Source of the DNA: a virus
Direction: 5' to 3' (one strand)
IMG/VR virus record: IMGVR_UViG_3300035698_014711
Coordinates: 1 to 64,000 of that record
DNA length: 64,000 nt
Below, in pieces: positions 26,702 to 55,580 of this stretch (its first letter is position 1; each line of letters begins with the position of its first letter). The notes below the pieces were generated by a model, which saw only the letters and a program-made list of their open reading frames with translations, searched no databases and was not told the origin of the DNA. The translations under genes were made by a program, and so were the position numbers.

Positions 26702-26776
26702 TGGTAGAAGATAGAGGTTACGCTCCCCTGCCCGAAACGTTATGAGCGTTTTGTGCTACTATTACACCAATCTTCC
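26702..26776 (-). tRNA. tRNA-Met(CAT) with atypical T-loop
   Basis: Cloverleaf, loop CT-CAT-AA, T-loop AGCGTAA, encoded CCA. Confidence 0.75.
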
Positions 26777-32679: not shown

Positions 32680-34119
32680 TTACTTTCTTTTCTTAAGCCA
32701 TGGCTTGTCAATCTCACCAGCCATCATAGAACCCAAAGGAAGGATTTCATCTACAATGTTAGCAAGCTTATAGTCTTCAATTTGACGGCGGACTTCTGCT
32801 GCAGACTTATAGGCGCCGGGAAGTTCAGAAGGATCTGGCATCCCAGTATAGAACCTAGCATCAATATGACCAGCCTGTTCCTCCATAATCTGAGCAGTAG
32901 TCTTATGAGCATTCAATTTCTTGAATTTAGTCCGAGACATATTCCGTCCAGCCCCATGAGGAGCAAACCCGAACTCATTCTTTTCATGATCTTTTACAAT
33001 CAAGATAGGCTCGCCCATGTTTAAGGGAATAATAGTTCTTCCGTGGATATCTGCGTCGTGAGCGTGTTGACCGAACACAGGTGTAGAACCCTTGGCATGG
33101 TAGAAGTTTTCTCCTTGCTTAAAGACAAAGTTATGCTCATTCCAGAAACGGTCGATAATGTTTGGAGTATCCATATTCATTGCACGCATCACAGCATCAT
33201 GGATCACAGTATGGTTCCACTTTGTCCATTCTCGAATGATTTGCAAAGCTTCCCAATATTCCTTACCTTCTTCGGTATCATATGGAATCCAAGCATTGTG
33301 CTTTGGAATGTCTGGAGCAATTTCTCTCCGAACAAGTTCAGCTGCAATCATGCCATTCTTATATAACAAAGCTCCAGGCTTACGAGACCCGTGATGAGTA
33401 ATGAAAACAAGCTTTCCGTCAGACTTTGCTTTGCCTACATAGAAGAAGTGGTTTCCATCACCCTGAGTTCCAAGATGATCAGACATTGCTTTAAGCATTT
33501 GAACTGATGCAAGGAAACGGTTATCTTTTGCTCGGTTGGTGATAGGACCAGAATGTTCCATCGACAGGTCTTTTCTTCCCCCAGGCCCAAAATGAGACTG
33601 AGCTTGGACATGATCAAGAATATCAGCCACATCAAATTCGTCTGCATCAAAATCAAACTTTGTCAAAAACATTGAGCAGCAAATATCAGCAGAGTGCATT
33701 CCTGGATGGATAGCATTCTTAGCTACTGCTACAGCCCCAACAGGAATAGTTCCTAATGTGCCCCCAGCTGGACAAGCATCAGGGAGTATAGCAGCATCTA
33801 CAATGGTGGGAATTCTCATCAATTCAGCCATATGCTCATGGACTGCAGACATGTTTTCTTTTTCATACTCATTGTTGCCAGCATCAGCAAAGACATGGTA
33901 GGGCTTCTTAAATTTCTCATCCAAAAAGACCATGTTCTCTGCTCGGTCACGGCGAATAGTTTCCTCCATATCATTATGCTCTTGAATCATCTCAAACATT
34001 GCTTCTTCGATGATAGTTTCTTCAATATCATTCTCATGCAAGGCTGCAGCAACTGCTAACATGTCTGCAAAATGTGGCCCGGGTTTACACCCGAGCTCTA
34101 TTAGTCTGTTTCCGTCCAT
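32680..34119 (-). CDS. rtcB: RtcB 3'-phosphate RNA ligase with N-terminal extension
   Basis: LPDAC, IPVG, SADICC, LGTQGDGNHF, THHGSR, HNF, HAKG, APHGAGR, ELPGAYK; start ATG 34119 has RBS. Confidence 0.93.
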   Translation of the reverse strand: MDGNRLIELGCKPGPHFADMLAVAAALHENDIEETIIEEAMFEMIQEHNDMEETIRRDRAENMVFLDEKFKKPYHVFADAGNNEYEKENMSAVHEHMAELMRIPTIVDAAILPDACPAGGTLGTIPVGAVAVAKNAIHPGMHSADICCSMFLTKFDFDADEFDVADILDHVQAQSHFGPGGRKDLSMEHSGPITNRAKDNRFLASVQMLKAMSDHLGTQGDGNHFFYVGKAKSDGKLVFITHHGSRKPGALLYKNGMIAAELVRREIAPDIPKHNAWIPYDTEEGKEYWEALQIIREWTKWNHTVIHDAVMRAMNMDTPNIIDRFWNEHNFVFKQGENFYHAKGSTPVFGQHAHDADIHGRTIIPLNMGEPILIVKDHEKNEFGFAPHGAGRNMSRTKFKKLNAHKTTAQIMEEQAGHIDARFYTGMPDPSELPGAYKSAAEVRRQIEDYKLANIVDEILPLGSMMAGEIDKPWLKKRK

Positions 34120-34130
34120 AACTTTTCCTA

Positions 34131-34784
34131 TTATGTTTTTGGTCGCTTGACCAAGGCATCCTTTGACGGACAATTATTCCCTGGCTTGTAAGAGCTCATG
34201 AAGTTTACCCGTGCTTCATCTCCACCATTTTCAATCCAGATACCCTCTGTTTTTCCACCCCAGGCCTGATACGTTGGTTTTGCTTCATAGATAAAGGCAT
34301 CACCATCACCGTCTACTGCCAAATATTGGAACTTAGGATCAATTTGGCTCCAGTCAATAGAAGGCTTTACAACTGGCTTTGTCACGAGACGATAGACTCG
34401 GTTGGGGAGCAATTTAAAGACAGAGCCTTGCTTCCAGATTCCATCACCACCTATACGGTGCCCCGCATATGTCTTTACTACTTCAGTCCATGCACCAAGT
34501 TTCGTATAGACTTCAATTGGTCCTGCAGATTCAGCAAAGGCATCCTGCATCTCTTTTGACAATAGCCCGTAAGCAGTTGTGTTCTCAACAAGCTGCTTAG
34601 TGCATCGCGGGACAAGTTCAAAATAGCCCGCGGTGCTGCTCCACTGATTGATAACCTCAATTGCGCCGGCATATGGTACGTCTAGAACTACGTACTCAGT
34701 ACCGACAATACCGAAGCGGCTGGGATCATGTGACTCTACAGTCCTGATAACCGTATCACCTACATTAAAATTATGCTTATTCAT
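34131..34784 (-). CDS. hypothetical protein
   Basis: ORF with AGGAG RBS. Confidence 0.7.
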   Translation of the reverse strand: MNKHNFNVGDTVIRTVESHDPSRFGIVGTEYVVLDVPYAGAIEVINQWSSTAGYFELVPRCTKQLVENTTAYGLLSKEMQDAFAESAGPIEVYTKLGAWTEVVKTYAGHRIGGDGIWKQGSVFKLLPNRVYRLVTKPVVKPSIDWSQIDPKFQYLAVDGDGDAFIYEAKPTYQAWGGKTEGIWIENGGDEARVNFMSSYKPGNNCPSKDALVKRPKT

Positions 34785-38784: not shown

Positions 38785-38856
38785 TGGAGCGGACAGAGGG
38801 AATCTAACCCTCTCCTTAAGTTTGGAAAACTATTTGGCTAACATAGCCCTGCCCGC
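38785..38856 (-). tRNA. tRNA-Gly(TCC), reduced D-loop
   Basis: GCGGGCA/TGTCCGC, U73, D-arm GGCTA-TGT-TAGCC, T-loop TTAGATT. Confidence 0.8.
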
Positions 38857-38859
38857 ATA

Positions 38860-38912
38860 ACCGTGGAGTGTTGAGTTTTTATGCAATAAAATTAAGGAAC
38901 ACTCTTTACGGT
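38860..38912 (-). ncRNA. GTTCCTTA hairpin motif, copy 4
   Basis: ACCGT-AAA-GAGTGTTCCTTA..AACACTC-C-ACGGT. Confidence 0.7.
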
Positions 38913-38930
38913 AGAATAGTATTTATAAGA

Positions 38931-39158
38931 TTAACATCGCATTTTTGGATCAGAATGAAAAGGACTCATTCCAGTTTTACCTGCATGAGCTTCATTAAGC
39001 TTTTCTTGTTGATCAGCTGGATAGCTTGGATCAATTTCATGAAGAAAAACCATATTCAAGTGTCTCTTGATTAGATCCACTTGCTGAGAGTTAATATTAA
39101 CAGGCTCGGCTACTTCAAAGAAGCCCTGTAGCCAATAGCAAAATTCTGTAGATTTCAT
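38931..39158 (-). CDS. conserved small phage protein (FCYWLQGFFE)
   Basis: True start ATG 39158 with AAGGA RBS. Confidence 0.75.
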   Translation of the reverse strand: MKSTEFCYWLQGFFEVAEPVNINSQQVDLIKRHLNMVFLHEIDPSYPADQQEKLNEAHAGKTGMSPFHSDPKMRC

Positions 39159-39174
39159 GTCAGTATCCTTAAAT

Positions 39175-39363
39175 GGCGAGTTGTAATTTGGTGGCACGCA
39201 AGGGCCTTGCTTGATGTAAGGAACAACTTGTGCCGATGTGAATATGCCGGAGTGTAAGGTTTCTAAAATGAATGAATAAGGAACACTCTTTGGCAATATG
39301 TTAATGATGAGCTGTTAAAAATCGGAGGTTGGTCCGACCACGAGTAAGGAACAGCTTTTATCA
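39175..39363 (-). repeat. three tandem GTTCCTTA hairpin motifs (39305-39363, 39245-39295, 39175-39234)
   Basis: Invariant taaggaac (plus strand) with covarying stems and unrelated loops. Confidence 0.8.
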
Positions 39364-39369
39364 AATTTC

Positions 39370-41115
39370 TTAAAGAGACAACAAAGCCTCCAATTTATCA
39401 TAGCTGAATGATGAATAAGTCAGATCGTAATCATACTCAACACCAGGTACAGCTACTTTATCATAGCCTACGCCAATCAGGCCAAGAACTTCTTGAAGAG
39501 TAAAGACAGAGTTAAGACCTTTTTCAATCAGAGGGTTCTTTCCGTTTGATGAAACATGCCTATTTCCCGTCCGTCCTGTAAACACAGTAAAGGTTGTGCC
39601 CTTGACAAAGCCAAGGATAACTTCCTTAGACTGCATAGTGAATTCTTCCTGAATGATTGGGTTCTGAATCCACTCCCCTTTGGTCTTTTGACCTACAATC
39701 AATGAAGCCTTACAGCCAATTTCACCAGAGTAAATATTAACATTAAGACCATATTCAGAACCAGAAGAGGAGGTCATGAATTCCATAGCATCAGGGGTAG
39801 GTGTAACAACATCACCAGAATAGATAATCTGTCCGTCAGTATATCCACCAGTGCCGCCCCAGCCTATACGATTTCCATCTTTATCAATAGAAGATAAGTC
39901 AAGATCTCGAGCTCCACCGTCTTTATGCCAATAGATACCAGAAGAGATAGATTCTGCAGCAACGTGGATCTTTGTGCCAAAAGGTAGATTACCCAGAGTC
40001 TGCTTCTGAGAGATTGGAAGACCATAGTCAACATTAGTATCCAGAAGGATTTTCTTATCTTTCAGGTATTCTAGATCAACTTTAATAGAAGAAATAATAG
40101 TATTCTGAAGCTGACCTAATACTTTCAGATCATAGACTTTAACATCTGCAGTCTTTACAAAGAGCTTGCCATTCCGAATATTGAAAACATCTACATCTAG
40201 CTGCTTGCATTTATACTCAACCAGGTTAAGAAATTTGAACTTATCTCGCAGAGAAGCTTTAGATAATAGATCAAGGGGATCTGTAATCTTACCTGCAATA
40301 GCATCAGCAATGAAGGTCTTTGTCCATGACTGCTTGAGCGGAATATGAACTGTTTTGCTCAACCTAGAGATATAGTTAATCTGAGTTTTATTGCTCTTAT
40401 GCTTGACAGACATAATTACTGCTTTGTGTCGGTTAAAGACTTGAGCAAGAGCAAGAGCGTTACGGCTATAAAAGCTTGAAGGAATAAGAGCGGCTGACAT
40501 TTTGCAAGCCTGGAGAACTTCTTTTGATTTAATCAGAAGAGTATCACCTGTTGCTCGATAGATAATATAGCGGACTGCATCATCACCACAATCAAAAGTG
40601 TCATTGTTAGCATCAAAGAGCAATACTCTAAGCTCGTTATTCTCAACAAGATTGACATTGAACTGAATGAGATACCTATCAATGATAGCTTTCAGACCAA
40701 GGACATCCTTGACCGGAGCATTGCTATACATGAGCTTCCGAACTTTATCACCAAGTTCTTCTTCAGTAATGCCGATAACAAACTTTAGAGTAAAAGTAGG
40801 CTCTTGAGTCTCATTTATGATAGTAAAAGAACCACCAAGACCGTCAAGACCCATGCCATAAACTTCGAGATAATGGATGAACTGTGTGGTCAGAAGGTAA
40901 GGAAGTGAAGCCTTTTGTCGTTCTTCCACTGTAAAAAGAGTACGAACTGGGAGCCCACGATCATTATGCTTGAAAAACAATTGTTGCTCAGGAGATGGGT
41001 TAAAGTTTAAAACATAACCATGCGCAATCATAGTAGTAACAAATGCATCTCTTGAAACCTGATCAGCATCAATTACAGTAGCATTAAATAGGTCTAGAAC
41101 TTCTTTCATAATCAT
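39370..41115 (-). CDS. 581-aa protein, helical N-terminus plus TerD-like C-terminal domain
   Basis: GIYW..RDLDLS..IGW..YSGDV..AMEF..VNIYSG resembles TerD-like domains. Confidence 0.6.
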   Translation of the reverse strand: MIMKEVLDLFNATVIDADQVSRDAFVTTMIAHGYVLNFNPSPEQQLFFKHNDRGLPVRTLFTVEERQKASLPYLLTTQFIHYLEVYGMGLDGLGGSFTIINETQEPTFTLKFVIGITEEELGDKVRKLMYSNAPVKDVLGLKAIIDRYLIQFNVNLVENNELRVLLFDANNDTFDCGDDAVRYIIYRATGDTLLIKSKEVLQACKMSAALIPSSFYSRNALALAQVFNRHKAVIMSVKHKSNKTQINYISRLSKTVHIPLKQSWTKTFIADAIAGKITDPLDLLSKASLRDKFKFLNLVEYKCKQLDVDVFNIRNGKLFVKTADVKVYDLKVLGQLQNTIISSIKVDLEYLKDKKILLDTNVDYGLPISQKQTLGNLPFGTKIHVAAESISSGIYWHKDGGARDLDLSSIDKDGNRIGWGGTGGYTDGQIIYSGDVVTPTPDAMEFMTSSSGSEYGLNVNIYSGEIGCKASLIVGQKTKGEWIQNPIIQEEFTMQSKEVILGFVKGTTFTVFTGRTGNRHVSSNGKNPLIEKGLNSVFTLQEVLGLIGVGYDKVAVPGVEYDYDLTYSSFSYDKLEALLSL

Positions 41116-41128
41116 TCCTCTTTCAAAT

Positions 41129-41202
41129 TGGATGTGCGAGCTGGGATCGAACCAGCATTAACGGGGTCAAAGGCCGCTTTCCTGCCATTAGAAGATCGCA
41201 CA
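41129..41202 (-). tRNA. tRNA-Gln(TTG)
   Basis: Cloverleaf, CCA. Confidence 0.9.
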
Positions 41203-46184: not shown

Positions 46185-47564
46185 TTAAATTGCTGCATTT
46201 TTCCGAACTGTTGAGAAGGAAGTATCACGTAGAAGCTTTCCATCAAGAAAGACATCCTCAAGAAGATTTACTTCCCCAGCCTTGAGATCACTTTCACGGA
46301 ATGTTTCCTTACCATTGTAGGCGAGACGGCCTCTCTTGGAAGTTTTACCTCCGTGGATAGGATCTTTCCAAGTATCAATCCAAGCTTCGCCTTTATGAAT
46401 TGCAGAAGCTTTCATTGCATAGCCAAGAGTGTCTCGGCTTACATTCTGGAGAAGTCCTCCACCCATTCCGAAGGCAATATTCTCAGTTGAGATTCCTTGA
46501 ATTTCAAGATTATCAAGGATTTTTGGAAGTGATGTAGAATCAATGCCGTCACCTTGAATGACTCGAATATAAGGAGGAAGTACTTTATAGCCTTTTGAAT
46601 TGGTAGTATATCCGAACTCTTCCATTAGAATTTTAATGACTTCAATCGGAACAACGGTTGGAGAGCCTGAGTCTGGACGGATAACAAGAGTGCCGCCTGA
46701 GTTGATAATCATATCTTTAAACTCTCGGCCTACAATGTTCCTTGCCATATTGTAGATATCATAGGAATCAGACACCATGGCCAGGAGTTTTCCCTCACCA
46801 GAGAAAAGTGTCATCATATTTTTAAGAGCTTCTGCTTCGCCTTCACGGCCCCATGAAGTCACGGTGGAGTGTTCTGAGGCGGGAATAGAGAATCCTGCCA
46901 TATCTTCACCATAGTAGTGACGAGCTCCAAGAAGACCGGCAACTGTGTCGGTTCCCATAAAGTTCACAAGGTGAGCGGTTCCACCAAGCATTGCTTGTTC
47001 AAGACAAGTAGCACCACGAGCACCAAAGTCATGCAATTTGAAAGCAATCTGATCAGCAACTGGCACATCAGACGTAATTTCAAGTGCATTGGCGATGTGT
47101 AGCTTCATGTTTCTCGATACTGTTGCAACTGTTGACGGATACCACACAGCTCGAAGCAAGGCAGTTTCAATAAAGCTTGGCAACCAAGAGCAATTTTCAT
47201 CAGTATTGATAATCTGGACTTGCACATTTGAAGATTCCATAACAGTTCCTTCTGGAACAGCCTGGATTCTCAGGGGTAAATAGCCACTGTGTTCTAGCAA
47301 AATGTATTCCCAATCTTCCCGATAGAAAGGGAGACCGTGAGCTAGGATAATCATTTCCGCTTCATTGATATCAGCTTGGGTGAAAGGTTCTAGAAGATAT
47401 TCTTTAATGAACATCTGCAATCCAAAGAACACAGTCACCTTATCAGCCTTGCGAGCTTCAATATATGAGTTTACAAACTTGATGTCTGGAGCCCATTGCC
47501 GGGGTTGGCTATACTTATAGCTATCAGAATTGAGAATTAGATTGGCGATTAGATTATTTCTCAT
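46185..47564 (-). CDS. nadV: nicotinamide phosphoribosyltransferase (Nampt)
   Basis: DSYKYSQ, LHDFGARG, SIPASEHS, VSDSYD, IRPDSG, QGDG, FGMGGGLLQ. Confidence 0.95.
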   Translation of the reverse strand: MRNNLIANLILNSDSYKYSQPRQWAPDIKFVNSYIEARKADKVTVFFGLQMFIKEYLLEPFTQADINEAEMIILAHGLPFYREDWEYILLEHSGYLPLRIQAVPEGTVMESSNVQVQIINTDENCSWLPSFIETALLRAVWYPSTVATVSRNMKLHIANALEITSDVPVADQIAFKLHDFGARGATCLEQAMLGGTAHLVNFMGTDTVAGLLGARHYYGEDMAGFSIPASEHSTVTSWGREGEAEALKNMMTLFSGEGKLLAMVSDSYDIYNMARNIVGREFKDMIINSGGTLVIRPDSGSPTVVPIEVIKILMEEFGYTTNSKGYKVLPPYIRVIQGDGIDSTSLPKILDNLEIQGISTENIAFGMGGGLLQNVSRDTLGYAMKASAIHKGEAWIDTWKDPIHGGKTSKRGRLAYNGKETFRESDLKAGEVNLLEDVFLDGKLLRDTSFSTVRKNAAI

Positions 47565-47593
47565 GTTACAAAACTTCCTTTTGTATCTTTAAC

Positions 47594-48619
47594 TTAACTG
47601 ATGCTTGTGAACCAGTCGATGATATGAAAATGGTCTTCAGATAGTTGGGTTGGATCGATATTACTTAGAGACATCCAAAATGCCTTCTTTGCATCATCAC
47701 CACCTTTTACCTTGGGCAACTTCTTTTGGAAGCCAAGGTCAATGTGATATGCTGTAGTGATGGTCCGTCCTCGAGTTGATCTTTGAGGATAATCGAAAGT
47801 CTTAATAGATTTGATACTTCCGTCCAGAACCTTTTTGGGAACTTTCAGACATGTCTCTTCTTCAAGCTCACGGAGTGCTGCATTTCTGAGAGTCTCATAC
47901 TCATTGATGAAACCTCCTGGAAGAGCAAGAAGGCCTTTACCTGGGTTATTCGCCCGTTCAACCATCAAGACACAGCCGGAGCAAGTCACAACTGAATCTG
48001 CAGTCTGAAAGATTGGAGGGTATTTACCTGTAGAAGTTGTCTGCTTATAGATCCGAGTTTCTTCATATTCATCTCGAAGAAGAGACCAGAAAGGCTGCTG
48101 AGTCTGAGTCTTGAAAATCTGAAAAGCAGCATCAGGCATCAGACTCGTGACTTCATCAGATCGATCACTTAGATAATGAGTATAAGCAAAGTTTCGGATG
48201 TCGGTAGCATTGACATCACCAAACGAATCTACTTCAATCTTGTCCCAGAAGGGAAACATATCCAGATAGAAAGTGGTCTCGTCTTTGCCGTGCCCAAGAA
48301 TTGCAATCTTAAGAGGCAGATTTTGCCAGTTGATCTCAATAGATTCATGGACTGCAGTCTGAACTCGGGCTACCCATTTGTGATCATCATAAGGACAATC
48401 TTGGACAGCAGCGGTCTGTACTGAATACTCAGGAAAAACTGCTTTGAGCTGAGCTCTTCGTTCATTATATGTGAGGGGATTGCGTAAGTCTCTAGCTTGG
48501 TTAGTGGATCCATAGACCCAAATAACATGTTTGCCTTTTTCTTTGGCACATTTAACTAGATGCTCATGTGCCTTTGAGAACGGCGAGGCACGGCCGATAA
48601 TTACTATTACGTCATACAT
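47594..48619 (-). CDS. bifunctional NMN adenylyltransferase / ADP-ribose Nudix hydrolase (NadM-Nudix)
   Basis: GR..P...H, RNPL, NATDIR; Nudix box GGF...E....AALRELEEET; GGDDA. Confidence 0.92.
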   Translation of the reverse strand: MYDVIVIIGRASPFSKAHEHLVKCAKEKGKHVIWVYGSTNQARDLRNPLTYNERRAQLKAVFPEYSVQTAAVQDCPYDDHKWVARVQTAVHESIEINWQNLPLKIAILGHGKDETTFYLDMFPFWDKIEVDSFGDVNATDIRNFAYTHYLSDRSDEVTSLMPDAAFQIFKTQTQQPFWSLLRDEYEETRIYKQTTSTGKYPPIFQTADSVVTCSGCVLMVERANNPGKGLLALPGGFINEYETLRNAALRELEEETCLKVPKKVLDGSIKSIKTFDYPQRSTRGRTITTAYHIDLGFQKKLPKVKGGDDAKKAFWMSLSNIDPTQLSEDHFHIIDWFTSIS

Positions 48620-55234: not shown

Positions 55235-55580
55235 TTAGAAGCACACACTTTGCCATCCGAAGAGACAAGTGTGTGCTTGAGTTTTGTTTACTCGTCGGCA
55301 TTCACACTCTGATATGAGCAACTCTTGCGAGGAAGGGCGGTCAGCCGAATACCTTTTAAGCTCAGTTTGCATACTGACGGCAATTTTCCCAAGCCTATCA
55401 GACGACAACAGGGAAAATTTGATGGTTGATGTGTTCATTGCCATCATCGTGACTATAATATTTAGACAGCATTTAGACTTGGCTGTATCATGGTGTAATT
55501 TGTGCCCTAACTGAGCCCAAGGACTATGTCCTTTCTTCAGGTTTGGCTACTCACTTGAGGCTATGCCTCTATGTTAGCAG
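55235..55580 (-). ncRNA. about 340-nt multi-hairpin structured RNA candidate
   Basis: About 10 consecutive hairpins including GCAA tetraloop; no credible ORF. Confidence 0.65.

Follow-up and report, generated by a model that had tools for sequence, protein, structure and literature searches.

Covarying hairpin RNAs beside an uncharacterised protein family in phage tRNA arrays and Bacteroidota chromosomes: a candidate ribonucleoprotein system

Two described systems are among the closest to the one considered here. The Salmonella operon rsr-yrlBA-rtcBA sets Ro60 (Rsr) with the RNAs YrlA and YrlB next to the RNA ligase RtcB, as also found in many bacteria and phages, and a second pair, Band-7/b7a-tRNA, adjoins RtcB as well (PMC4201824; bioRxiv 10.1101/312249). 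The Ro60/Y RNA system shares its general layout with the present one. In both, a protein of about 550–600 aa is encoded beside a small RNA or several of them. Each RNA is built of modules, a conserved helix with unpaired nucleotides being joined to a plain loop or to a tRNA-like domain, and both kinds can stand in one array. RtcB is adjacent, and the system occurs in bacteria and phages. Band-7/b7a-tRNA likewise couples a protein to a tRNA-like non-coding RNA in linkage with RtcB, but the protein studied here has no Band-7 domain by Pfam, and it is accompanied by arrays of plain hairpins with an invariant motif.

The locus lies in a 64-kb stretch of viral DNA (the window). A minus-strand open reading frame at 39370–41115 encodes a 581-aa protein, and a tRNA-Gln(UUG) gene (41129–41202, minus strand) ends 14 nt upstream of its start codon. 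The gene and its hairpins are thus embedded in a tRNA array of the same strand. An earlier note on this DNA had proposed four minus-strand hairpin units here, and all four are present at the positions it gave. Units 1–3 come straight after the stop codon of the 581-aa gene. Unit 4 is placed beyond a 75-aa ORF (38931–39158, minus strand) and immediately ahead of a further tRNA (38788–38856, minus strand), from which only 3 nt separate its end. The RNase P site of this tRNA would set the 3′ end of unit 4. The tRNA itself is divergent: its anticodon loop, UUUCCAA, was read as Gly-UCC, and its CCA is encoded. It scores 32.6 bits with the Rfam tRNA model, whose gathering score is 29, and ARAGORN does not call it. 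A blastn comparison of the region with 50,697 phage records returned a sole match of 51 nt, inside this tRNA (query 83–133). The 75-aa ORF matches PHROG 28500 and PHROG 35763, both function-unassigned families; relatives of it were not found beside homologues of the 581-aa protein in other loci, and it probably does not belong to the system.

One design runs through the four units. The outer stem has 5 bp and the inner stem 6 bp; between them an AAA bulge faces a bulged C; and at the top an invariant UUCCU is followed by a variable loop closed by UAC. Each folds alone into an outer stem, a 3-nt A-rich bulge, an inner stem, a large loop and a 1-nt C bulge. Folding energies are given below with z-scores relative to shuffled sequences, together with the scores under the covariance model (R1) used for the searches. 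Unit 1 (39304–39364, minus strand; -15.6 kcal/mol, z -3.28; 39.4 bits, E 1.2e-08) has the outer stem TGAT/ATCA and the inner stem AGCTGT/ACAGCT, with the AAA bulge, UUCCU and the bulged C, and its loop of 35 nt contains a small internal hairpin. Unit 2 (39244–39296, minus strand; -12.1 kcal/mol, z -3.85; 52.6 bits, E 1.1e-12) pairs TGCC/GGCA and GAGTGT/ACACTC around an AAA bulge. Unit 3 (39173–39236, minus strand; -14.8 kcal/mol, z -2.06; 38.8 bits, E 1.9e-08) has GGC/GCC outside, AGTTGT/ACAACT inside and ACA as its bulge, and unit 4 (38860–38912, minus strand; -13.1 kcal/mol, z -3.60; 50.4 bits, E 5.3e-12) has ACCGT/ACGGT, GAGTGT/ACACTC and AAA. The folds bear out the proposal that stem sequences vary among the four units while pairing is kept.

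There are exactly four copies of the 9-mer TGTTCCTTA in the window, all on the minus strand (38893–38901, 39217–39225, 39277–39285 and 39345–39353). The shared 8-mer occurs five times against 2.27 expected, and at least five copies arise in 8 of 100 shuffles. The 8-mer count by itself is ordinary; the clustering, the common strand and the structure are the unusual part. Two suggestions about the loops did not hold. The loops had been proposed as possible guides, and the longest match of any loop elsewhere in the window is 10 nt, which is the chance level. One loop had been said to end in a tRNA-like GCCACCA; the string lies within the loop of unit 3, next to a small hairpin and not at an end, and no recurrence of it was seen among the hairpin sequences inspected from other loci. 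Neither ARAGORN nor the Rfam tRNA model calls a tRNA on the hairpins.

Pairing is retained across the family. In 17 seed units, 96.3% of cells are paired and compensatory change is seen at 10 of the 11 pairs, a result equalled in 0 of 500 shuffles; here the inner stem, though not the outer, was picked by exact complementarity. A larger set of 94 hairpins from 44 sources was not picked by complementarity, but its alignment was fitted to the covariance model. In this set 96.9% of cells are paired, with 337 compensatory cells and again 10 of 11 pairs affected, and sliding the partner strand out of register lowers pairing to 37–48%. UUCCU and the bulged C are invariant in the 94 units, and conservation reaches 98% at two A positions of the bulge. 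Unit length ranges from 43 to 86 nt across the family, and many loops are A/U-rich filler or carry a small hairpin of their own. The comparison with Rfam that the earlier note had called for was run on Rfam 15 at E≤10 and E≤1, and no family matches any hairpin. This hairpin RNA family is widespread and apparently undescribed. Near-identical repeats are absent, since the stems differ and what the units hold in common is structure and 8–9 nt; a CRISPR array was rejected on these grounds, as the earlier note had argued. A Type III toxin-antitoxin array was also considered and set aside. ToxI-like repeats are tandem, near-identical, about 36 nt long and adjacent to a small endoribonuclease, whereas the present units are 43–86 nt and non-identical, and the protein has no match in PADLOC.

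The hairpins keep strict company with the protein gene. The covariance model was used to search loci around homologues of the 581-aa protein, and in the window plus 21 viral loci it gives 59 matches at E≤0.014, every one on the strand of the protein gene; 19 of the 21 loci have them. Three cultured phages, the Synechococcus phages S-CRM01 and S-CBWM1 and the gut phage Phass-1, also have matches next to their homologues. At E≤1 there are 138 matches in 48 of 52 bacterial loci, mostly from Bacteroidota, all on the gene strand and immediately upstream of the gene. The sole off-strand match among all loci is weak (E 2.8). In the full 73-kb contig to which the window belongs, the model matches the four units alone. 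Among 151 Flavobacteriales genomes the protein is found in six, and hairpins lie beside the gene in 6/6. Whole-genome searches gave matches in three of these six, always adjoining the gene, and the remaining three showed their hairpins once the region was searched without filters. None of the 145 protein-negative genomes matched in the whole-genome search, a figure weaker than it appears because the strict filters overlooked three of the six true positives. The co-occurrence that the earlier note had proposed to test by covariance model is thus borne out in viral and bacterial loci and in Flavobacteriales.

The position of the hairpins relative to the gene varies, as does their number (one to six copies). 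In the clade close to the window they lie 3′ of the gene, and in the distant clade 5′ of it. This bears on the first of the alternatives, namely that the hairpins are cis-acting sites in the mRNA, where the protein or another factor would bind the untranslated region and control translation or stability of its own message, much as in ribosomal-protein leaders, with no function as free RNA. Arrays in the distant viral clade and in bacteria stop 10–40 nt ahead of the start codon, in a possible 5′ UTR, so that a cis-regulatory role fits there too; that the hairpins keep to the gene strand, and that no promoter or terminator signal was found between gene and hairpins in the window, agree with it. 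A leader does not account as well for the other arrangements. In the window's own clade the hairpins follow the stop codon, and unit 4 is beyond another ORF; in Phass-1 they are 1.25 kb downstream of the gene, past two other ORFs; and in another viral locus (L004) single units sit immediately ahead of tRNAs about 3–4 kb from the gene. Such variable placement is more readily explained by independent RNA genes than by a leader. Arrays of two to six copies with unrelated loops are atypical of leaders, and the motif also occurs within a tRNA-like RNA, which points to a processed, stable product. We regard the cis-acting reading as unlikely.

This tRNA-like RNA is 108–124 nt long and stands ahead of the array in 35 of the 52 bacterial loci and in 4 of the 21 viral ones; the window has no copy. 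Acceptor, D and T arms are present, and a circularly permuted version of the hairpin motif makes up the anticodon arm and caps it. The acceptor stem is open, and an anticodon loop is missing in both the plain-hairpin and the tRNA-like forms.

The tRNA and RNA-repair setting that the earlier note had described is real. RtcB is encoded in the window at 32680–34173 (Pfam RtcB, E 9.5e-35), on the strand of the hairpins and about 4.7 kb downstream of them, and is likely the functional context of the module. Of the 52 bacterial loci, 37 encode RtcB in the 3-kb flanks of the module. All 21 viral loci lack RtcB within 5 kb (0/21), and the evidence for the RtcB link therefore comes from the bacteria and this window. 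Twelve of the 21 viral loci have tRNAs, and tmRNA is present in 5 of the 13 viral loci scanned. GOLLD RNA is found 640 nt past the array in one locus (L005), which also has skipping-rope RNA, and about 390 nt ahead of the tRNA-like RNA in another (L066). GOLLD, skipping-rope RNA and tmRNA thus share the phage tRNA-island neighbourhood of the hairpins, though the hairpins match none of their models. Beyond NAMPT in Phass-1 and a single ORF in L026, no protein neighbour of the window was found conserved in the other loci, and Pfam has no match to the two adjoining ORFs (219 and 61 aa). As a side observation, at least two ORFs annotated as 'hypothetical protein' in published phage genomes overlap the RNA arrays, and these are probably not genes.

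The 581-aa protein has 308 homologues, and a search at E≤1e-3 yields 1352 cluster representatives (50% identity). A scan of viral contigs with the single protein found no close relatives; the alignment-based scan succeeded. No longer, fused forms of the protein were found, which is weak evidence. Searches of Pfam, PHROG, NCBIfam, PADLOC and PDB sequences give no match. In the literature we found no description of the protein family or of the RNA motif, though a published survey of RtcB neighbourhoods may mention the protein family; Burroughs and Aravind reportedly made such a survey in 2016. The AF2 model predicts an N-terminal alpha/beta part, a helical domain (about 118–353), a beta-sandwich (about 356–515) with DLDLS and SGD motifs, and C-terminal helices. 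The helical domain is rich in conserved basic residues (R182, K196, R229, K231, K238, K254, H257, R314 and K371), and the invariant polar residues of the family are E161, H257, D404, D406, D435 and E445. With the whole model, Foldseek against the PDB returned low-probability alignments with TM ≤0.12, mostly to large multidomain proteins, and these were dismissed as meaningless. With the N-terminal model no PDB match falls below E 0.1 (best 0.12), and the weak top matches are helical-repeat proteins.

A TROVE-like toroid had been suggested; the 581-aa protein and sets of 24 and 30 members have no TROVE domain by Pfam, and Foldseek finds no Ro60. Ro60 also has a vWA domain, which Pfam does not find in the 581-aa protein, whose C-terminal domain is modelled as all-beta. 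On the RNA side, the hairpins have no match to YrlA/Y_RNA (RF02553) in Rfam, and the GNCGAAN0-1G motif that Y RNAs carry near the 5′ end was not seen in the units inspected. YrlA has a closed acceptor stem and its ends form the protein-binding stem, whereas in the tRNA-like RNA here the acceptor stem is open. The analogy drawn in the earlier note thus gains from the tRNA-like RNA with the motif in its anticodon arm and loses on the protein, which is not TROVE-like. Of five bacterial genomes with homologues that were searched, two encode a TROVE protein as well, so the system is not a simple replacement for Ro60.

The same note had assigned the protein a TerD-like domain, and support for this is weak. 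The DLDLS and SGD...E motifs of the beta-sandwich align with the metal-binding motifs of TerD (PF02342). An hhalign comparison of the C-terminal alignment with five TerD proteins is marginal (E 0.0084, probability 4.8%, 77 columns over DLDLS/SGD), BFVD contains one structural relative under the annotation 'putative tellurium resistant like protein', and the nearest named ESM Atlas cluster has TerD in 22% of its members. Against this, the Pfam TerD model matches neither the 581-aa protein (E≤1), nor 30 members of the family (E≤0.1), nor the six-frame translation of the contig (E≤10); in five genomes with homologues it matched true TerD genes only, and no TerD structure is among the listed PDB matches from Foldseek. 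TerD proteins are about 190 aa and are not known to have an RNA partner. A further likeness, in predicted structures alone, is to the proteins of an ESM Atlas cluster named for the MXAN_6230/SCO0854-family RING-domain proteins of Actinomycetota, whose model aligns over residues 27–581 (TM 0.63 by query), with a second alignment over 45–355 (TM 0.51). Those proteins are about 990 aa long with Prok-RING_4, unlike the 581-aa protein, and we found no paper on them.

We think it reasonably probable that the hairpins are small stable non-coding RNAs that partner the 581-aa protein, and that the two form a ribonucleoprotein for tRNA or RNA repair or quality control, Ro60/Y RNA-like yet built from unrelated parts. 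The hairpins would then be expressed as discrete RNAs, bound by the protein and put to use in repair. Against this reading, Pfam and Foldseek show neither a recognised RNA-binding domain in the protein nor a likeness to Ro60.

A different use of the same parts would make the hairpins substrates: the protein would cut the AAA/C loop and RtcB would rejoin the ends, so that the inner hairpin is circularised or the tRNA-like cap spliced out. The adjacent RtcB, the invariant unpaired nucleotides at a fixed site between two helices, the circular permutation that puts the same internal loop into the tRNA-like anticodon arm, and the invariant polar residues of the protein would all suit this, and the arrangement is reminiscent of archaeal bulge-helix-bulge processing. 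The bulge-helix-bulge, however, has two 3-nt bulges 4 bp apart, and the 1x3 internal loop here differs from that geometry. No nuclease fold or motif was found in the protein by Pfam or Foldseek; with the cap spliced out, no more than 4 nt of loop would remain, which is not an anticodon loop; and the 21 viral loci have the module without RtcB nearby. The substrate reading seems to us distinctly unlikely. Its fullest form, in which the protein is an RNA-cutting enzyme acting at the AAA/C loop and makes with RtcB a protein-only cut-and-rejoin system, the arrays being precursors of circular or re-ligated RNAs, is quite improbable. A counterpart of Ro60/Y RNA that arose independently, its protein fold and RNA motif both its own, is considerably more likely than such a cut-and-rejoin system.

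The hairpins might instead be decoys or sponges, either mimics of tRNA arms that sequester anticodon nucleases of the host or RNAs whose UUCCU titrates purine-rich sequences, with the protein merely stabilising them. Location in phage tRNA arrays, one to six copies and a UUCCU that is single-stranded in the predicted folds are what such a role would call for. The same module is chromosomal beside RtcB in many Bacteroidota, though, neither form of the RNA has an anticodon loop, and a sponge has no need of a strict one-to-one tie with a protein of 580 aa; we hold this to be very improbable. That the units are dispersed repeats (REP- or MITE-like, or terminator hairpins) or remnants of decayed tRNAs, lacking any specific partner, as short tandem intergenic hairpins might suggest, has next to no chance of being right and is already contradicted by whole-genome searches that place units solely beside the protein gene and by compensatory changes alongside invariant unpaired nucleotides, as well as by the fixed strand, the absence of a T-run after the stems of the four units and the silence of tRNA finders.

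In the ribonucleoprotein that we favour, the hairpin RNAs would be co-transcribed with the protein gene and adjacent tRNAs and excised by the ordinary tRNA-processing enzymes. The protein may read the invariant core, that is, a helix kinked at the AAA/C internal loop together with the UUCCU...UAC junction atop the inner stem. The variable part, whether a plain loop, an extra hairpin or, in numerous genomes, an entire tRNA-like body, could serve as a second module that mimics or recruits tRNA-handling factors such as RtcB. In phages the module might help to maintain the supply of phage tRNAs through infection, and in Bacteroidota it would belong to an RtcB operon.

An uncharacterised protein family and a high-information RNA motif are thus linked across cyanobacterial, gut and salt-lake phages and Bacteroidota chromosomes, with neither family represented in Pfam, PHROGs, NCBIfam, PADLOC or Rfam 15. 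Together they are an unannotated component of phage tRNA islands, near tmRNA and GOLLD RNA. Cultured carriers exist in S-CRM01, S-CBWM1 and strains of Chryseobacterium. If our reading is right, the system would be a second solution to the task of Ro60 and Y RNA, in which a protein is paired with tRNA-mimicking RNAs beside RtcB, and it would offer a natural comparison for testing what Ro60-type partnerships do.

The array proposed in the earlier note was recovered as drawn. TGTTCCTTA occurs exactly four times in the window, always on the minus strand and inside 460 nt; taken alone, the 8-mer count in the window has no significance. The four units (39304-39364, 39244-39296, 39173-39236 and 38860-38912) each fold in the manner that the earlier note describes, with z-scores of -2.1 to -3.9. 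They follow a common plan: a 5-bp outer stem, an A-rich 3-nt bulge on the 5′ strand, and a 6-bp inner stem with a G-U at its end, leading to a loop of 27-38 nt that is opened by UCCUUA and closed by (A/U)UAC. On the 3′ strand one C is bulged before the outer stem returns. All hairpins of the window are of this plain form; the tRNA-embedded form considered below is absent.

The source record is phage-like (73,296 nt, estimated 37% complete), and the hairpin region is surrounded by tRNA genes arrayed on the minus strand, at least 19 in number, to which Rfam contributes further ones. The 581-aa ORF (39370-41115, minus strand) begins 14 nt after tRNA-Gln(UUG). Past its stop codon come three hairpins, a 75-aa ORF, the fourth hairpin and, after a gap of 3 nt, a divergent tRNA (38788-38856, minus strand; Rfam 32.6 bits) that has a weak D arm and an encoded CCA, is read as Gly-UCC from its anticodon loop, and is without an ARAGORN call. 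RtcB (32680-34173), a gp32-like single-strand-binding protein and an NMNAT/Nudix protein are encoded nearby on the same, minus, strand. NAMPT, together with NMNAT/Nudix (46185-48619, minus strand), is separated from the module by a few kb, as NAMPT is in the gut phage Phass-1 (L090 1-1449), which may be a coincidence of phage auxiliary genes. Rfam also reports a tRNA outside the main array (26705-26776, minus strand; 47.5 bits), absent from the ARAGORN list, and a Methylobacterium-1 RNA (55373-55481, minus strand; 47.2 bits vs. a gathering score of 40), unexpected for a salt-lake phage contig.

The pairing of motif and protein claimed in the earlier note is not confined to the window. One metagenome search gave 308 relatives of the protein at E≤1e-3, and a wider one 1352 representatives at 50% identity, 874 of them at E≤1e-30; scanning viral contigs with an alignment of the family gave 21 loci. 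In close relatives (L001-L006, 42-48% identity) GTTCCTTA stands immediately 3′ of the stop codon. Thirteen units gathered from these by a script that demanded an exact 6-nt inner stem, a selection in itself, were joined with the four window units in a seed alignment, in which pairing holds in 96.3% of cells and compensatory changes occur in 10 of the 11 pairs; no selection was applied to the outer helix, which is 91.8% paired with covariation in 5/5 pairs. Run on the window and the 21 viral loci (278,520 nt), the covariance model of the motif (R1) gave 59 matches at E≤0.014, in 19 of the 21 loci and on the gene's strand in all cases. The two loci without a match come from contigs 4.2 and 5.5 kb long, and one more match (E 2.8) is on the strand opposite to the gene. 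Homologues annotated as hypothetical proteins, with R1 matches near them, are also encoded by three cultured phages, S-CRM01, S-CBWM1 and Phass-1. Two "hypothetical protein" ORFs in the published annotations overlap the arrays matched by the model (L088 3230-3376, g173c of S-CRM01, and L090 6602-6901, a CDS of Phass-1); these are probably not genes.

A scan of reference prokaryotic genomes found 52 loci, almost throughout in Bacteroidota (Chryseobacterium, Winogradskyella, Tenacibaculum, Flavobacterium). Here R1 gave 138 matches at E≤1 in 48 of the 52, again all on the gene's strand. Three of the four missed loci have little or no upstream sequence left or are matched by a mere fragment, and the fourth, L036, has two motif matches by a looser regex scan. 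As a whole-genome control, R1 was run at E≤1e-3 on 151 Flavobacteriales genomes, six of which encode the protein. Three genomes had matches, all protein-bearing and each beside the gene; the other three protein-bearing genomes have eight matches 5′ of the gene in an unfiltered search. The 145 genomes without the protein had no match under the strict filters, a zero that is weakened, though not removed, because these filters lose about half of the true sites. The bacterial hairpins form arrays of 2-6 directly 5′ of the gene, and in distant relatives (27-32% identity) the arrays likewise lie just 5′ of the gene, not 3′. That the hairpins are a cis-regulatory leader is rather unlikely, as the position of the arrays relative to the gene varies.

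R1 at E≤1e-3 was further applied to 44 of the 74 sources (near-duplicate Chryseobacterium loci were left out, as were the duplicate pairs L009 and L011, and L015 and L021), and yielded 94 distinct hairpins of 43-86 nt. In their alignment, which is fitted to the model and so tilted towards the structure, pairing is kept in 96.9% of cells, and 337 cells carry changes in both partners. Covariation scores 0.846, compared with 0.275 for shuffles, none of 500 reaching the observed value, and sliding the partner strand lowers pairing to 37-48%. By a cruder measure, pairs with change on both sides, the observed 10 was reached by 36/500 shuffles. The U:A closing pair, UUCCU and the bulged C are conserved at 100%, two A positions of the bulge at 98% each, and the G:C adjoining the closing pair at 96%. 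The loops are rich in A/U, with a median of 24 nt past UUCCU. These loops hold UGGA more often than expected (14/94 vs. 3.9; 0/500 shuffles as high), and in that subset it could form pairs with the invariant UUCC. In the comparison with Rfam that the earlier note had proposed, the hairpins match no family of Rfam 15. No description was found in full-text literature; Burroughs and Aravind 2016, reportedly a survey of RtcB neighbourhoods, may name the protein family.

In Bacteroidota, RNAs of 108-113 nt that match the Rfam tRNA model lie directly 5′ of the arrays. [quoted passage not shown] The helix, the C, the AAA and the UAC and GUUCCU flanks are all shared with the plain hairpin, in permuted order: here it is the outer stem that bears a cap and the inner one that leads into the tRNA body. 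By script, this arrangement with a downstream T-arm word is present in 35/52 bacterial and 4/21 viral loci; Rfam calls long tRNA-like RNAs also in L010, L014 and L017. One L010 unit (1056-1141), whose loop holds two GC-rich hairpins and a T-arm-like AGGTTCAAATCCT, is an intermediate between the two forms.

The setting is one of RtcB and tRNAs. On a single strand of Chryseobacterium locus L033 stand RtcB, the tRNA-like RNA, three hairpins and a 597-aa homologue, in that order. RtcB is present inside the 3-kb flanks of 37/52 bacterial loci, and within 5 kb at none of the 21 viral loci. A reading in which RtcB takes part in cutting and rejoining the hairpins, as substrates, is quite improbable. 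Around the viral loci tRNA arrays are common (at least one tRNA in 12/21, maximum 32), and 5 of 13 scanned have a tmRNA about 2.5 kb or less from the protein gene (L001 6835-7201, L002 4506-4816, L006 8873-9239, L010 3530-3806, L012 6549-6805); three of the five are of the permuted two-piece type. In L001 the tmRNA is directly 3′ of the hairpins with a single hairpin 5′ of it, and in L004 and the window single hairpins immediately precede tRNAs, so hairpin 3′ ends would be set by tRNA 5′ processing. A GOLLD RNA (L005 7756-8218, 187 bits) lies 640 nt past the array on a viral contig of 382 kb, which also carries a skipping-rope RNA (2222-2313) and a CUA-anticodon tRNA of amber-suppressor type (1969-2043, labelled Pyl by ARAGORN) that hints at stop-codon reassignment. 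On a Winogradskyella chromosome, a GOLLD-like RNA (L066 1413-1892; 137 bits, below the gathering score, E 3.9e-36) precedes the tRNA-like RNA by about 390 nt.

The 581-aa protein matched nothing in family libraries or PDB sequences. AF2 models (pLDDT 80.6 for the whole, 83.4 for the N-terminal part alone) divide into four: a small alpha/beta part, a helical domain in which many basic residues are conserved, a beta-sandwich and a set of C-terminal helices. Foldseek against PDB returned nothing meaningful for the whole protein or its N-terminal part; a TROVE-like fold, which had been suggested, found no Ro60 match there. Against BFVD it returned five confident phage relatives: Campylobacter phages IBB35 and CP21, Lactobacillus phage LpeD, an unnamed entry, and an uncultured siphovirus protein annotated "putative tellurium resistant like protein". 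The ESM Atlas comparison led to an Actinomycetota family of RING-domain proteins (TM 0.63), with a weak pointer to TerD. As for the TerD-like domain first read into the protein, the TerD model gave no match, and when the C-terminal alignment was compared with five real TerD proteins by hhalign, the DLDLS / SGD / NIY region aligned at E 0.0084 with a probability of only 4.8%; the domain is therefore no more than possibly TerD-related. TROVE proteins are encoded elsewhere in 2/5 homologue-bearing genomes. On a Chryseobacterium chromosome a TROVE-domain match (G004:C1:936568-936951) is about 5.5 kb from the homologue, so one RNA-repair island may hold both kinds of protein.

Hairpins serving as decoys seem very unlikely, and generic repeats are scarcely credible for helices that covary around invariant nucleotides. 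Taken together, hairpins and protein fit a dedicated RNA-protein partnership, given their strict co-occurrence, the fixed strand and variable position, the invariant unpaired nucleotides within covarying helices, the mixing of plain and tRNA-embedded forms in arrays, and the setting of RtcB and tRNAs. Ro60 with YrlA/YrlB is organised alike (PMC4201824; bioRxiv 10.1101/312249), and the Band-7/b7a-tRNA pairing mentioned there is similar in organisation. Membership tests placed the module in neither family; thus it would work like them as a system of its own, in which the hairpins would be expressed, bound by the protein and have a role in repair.
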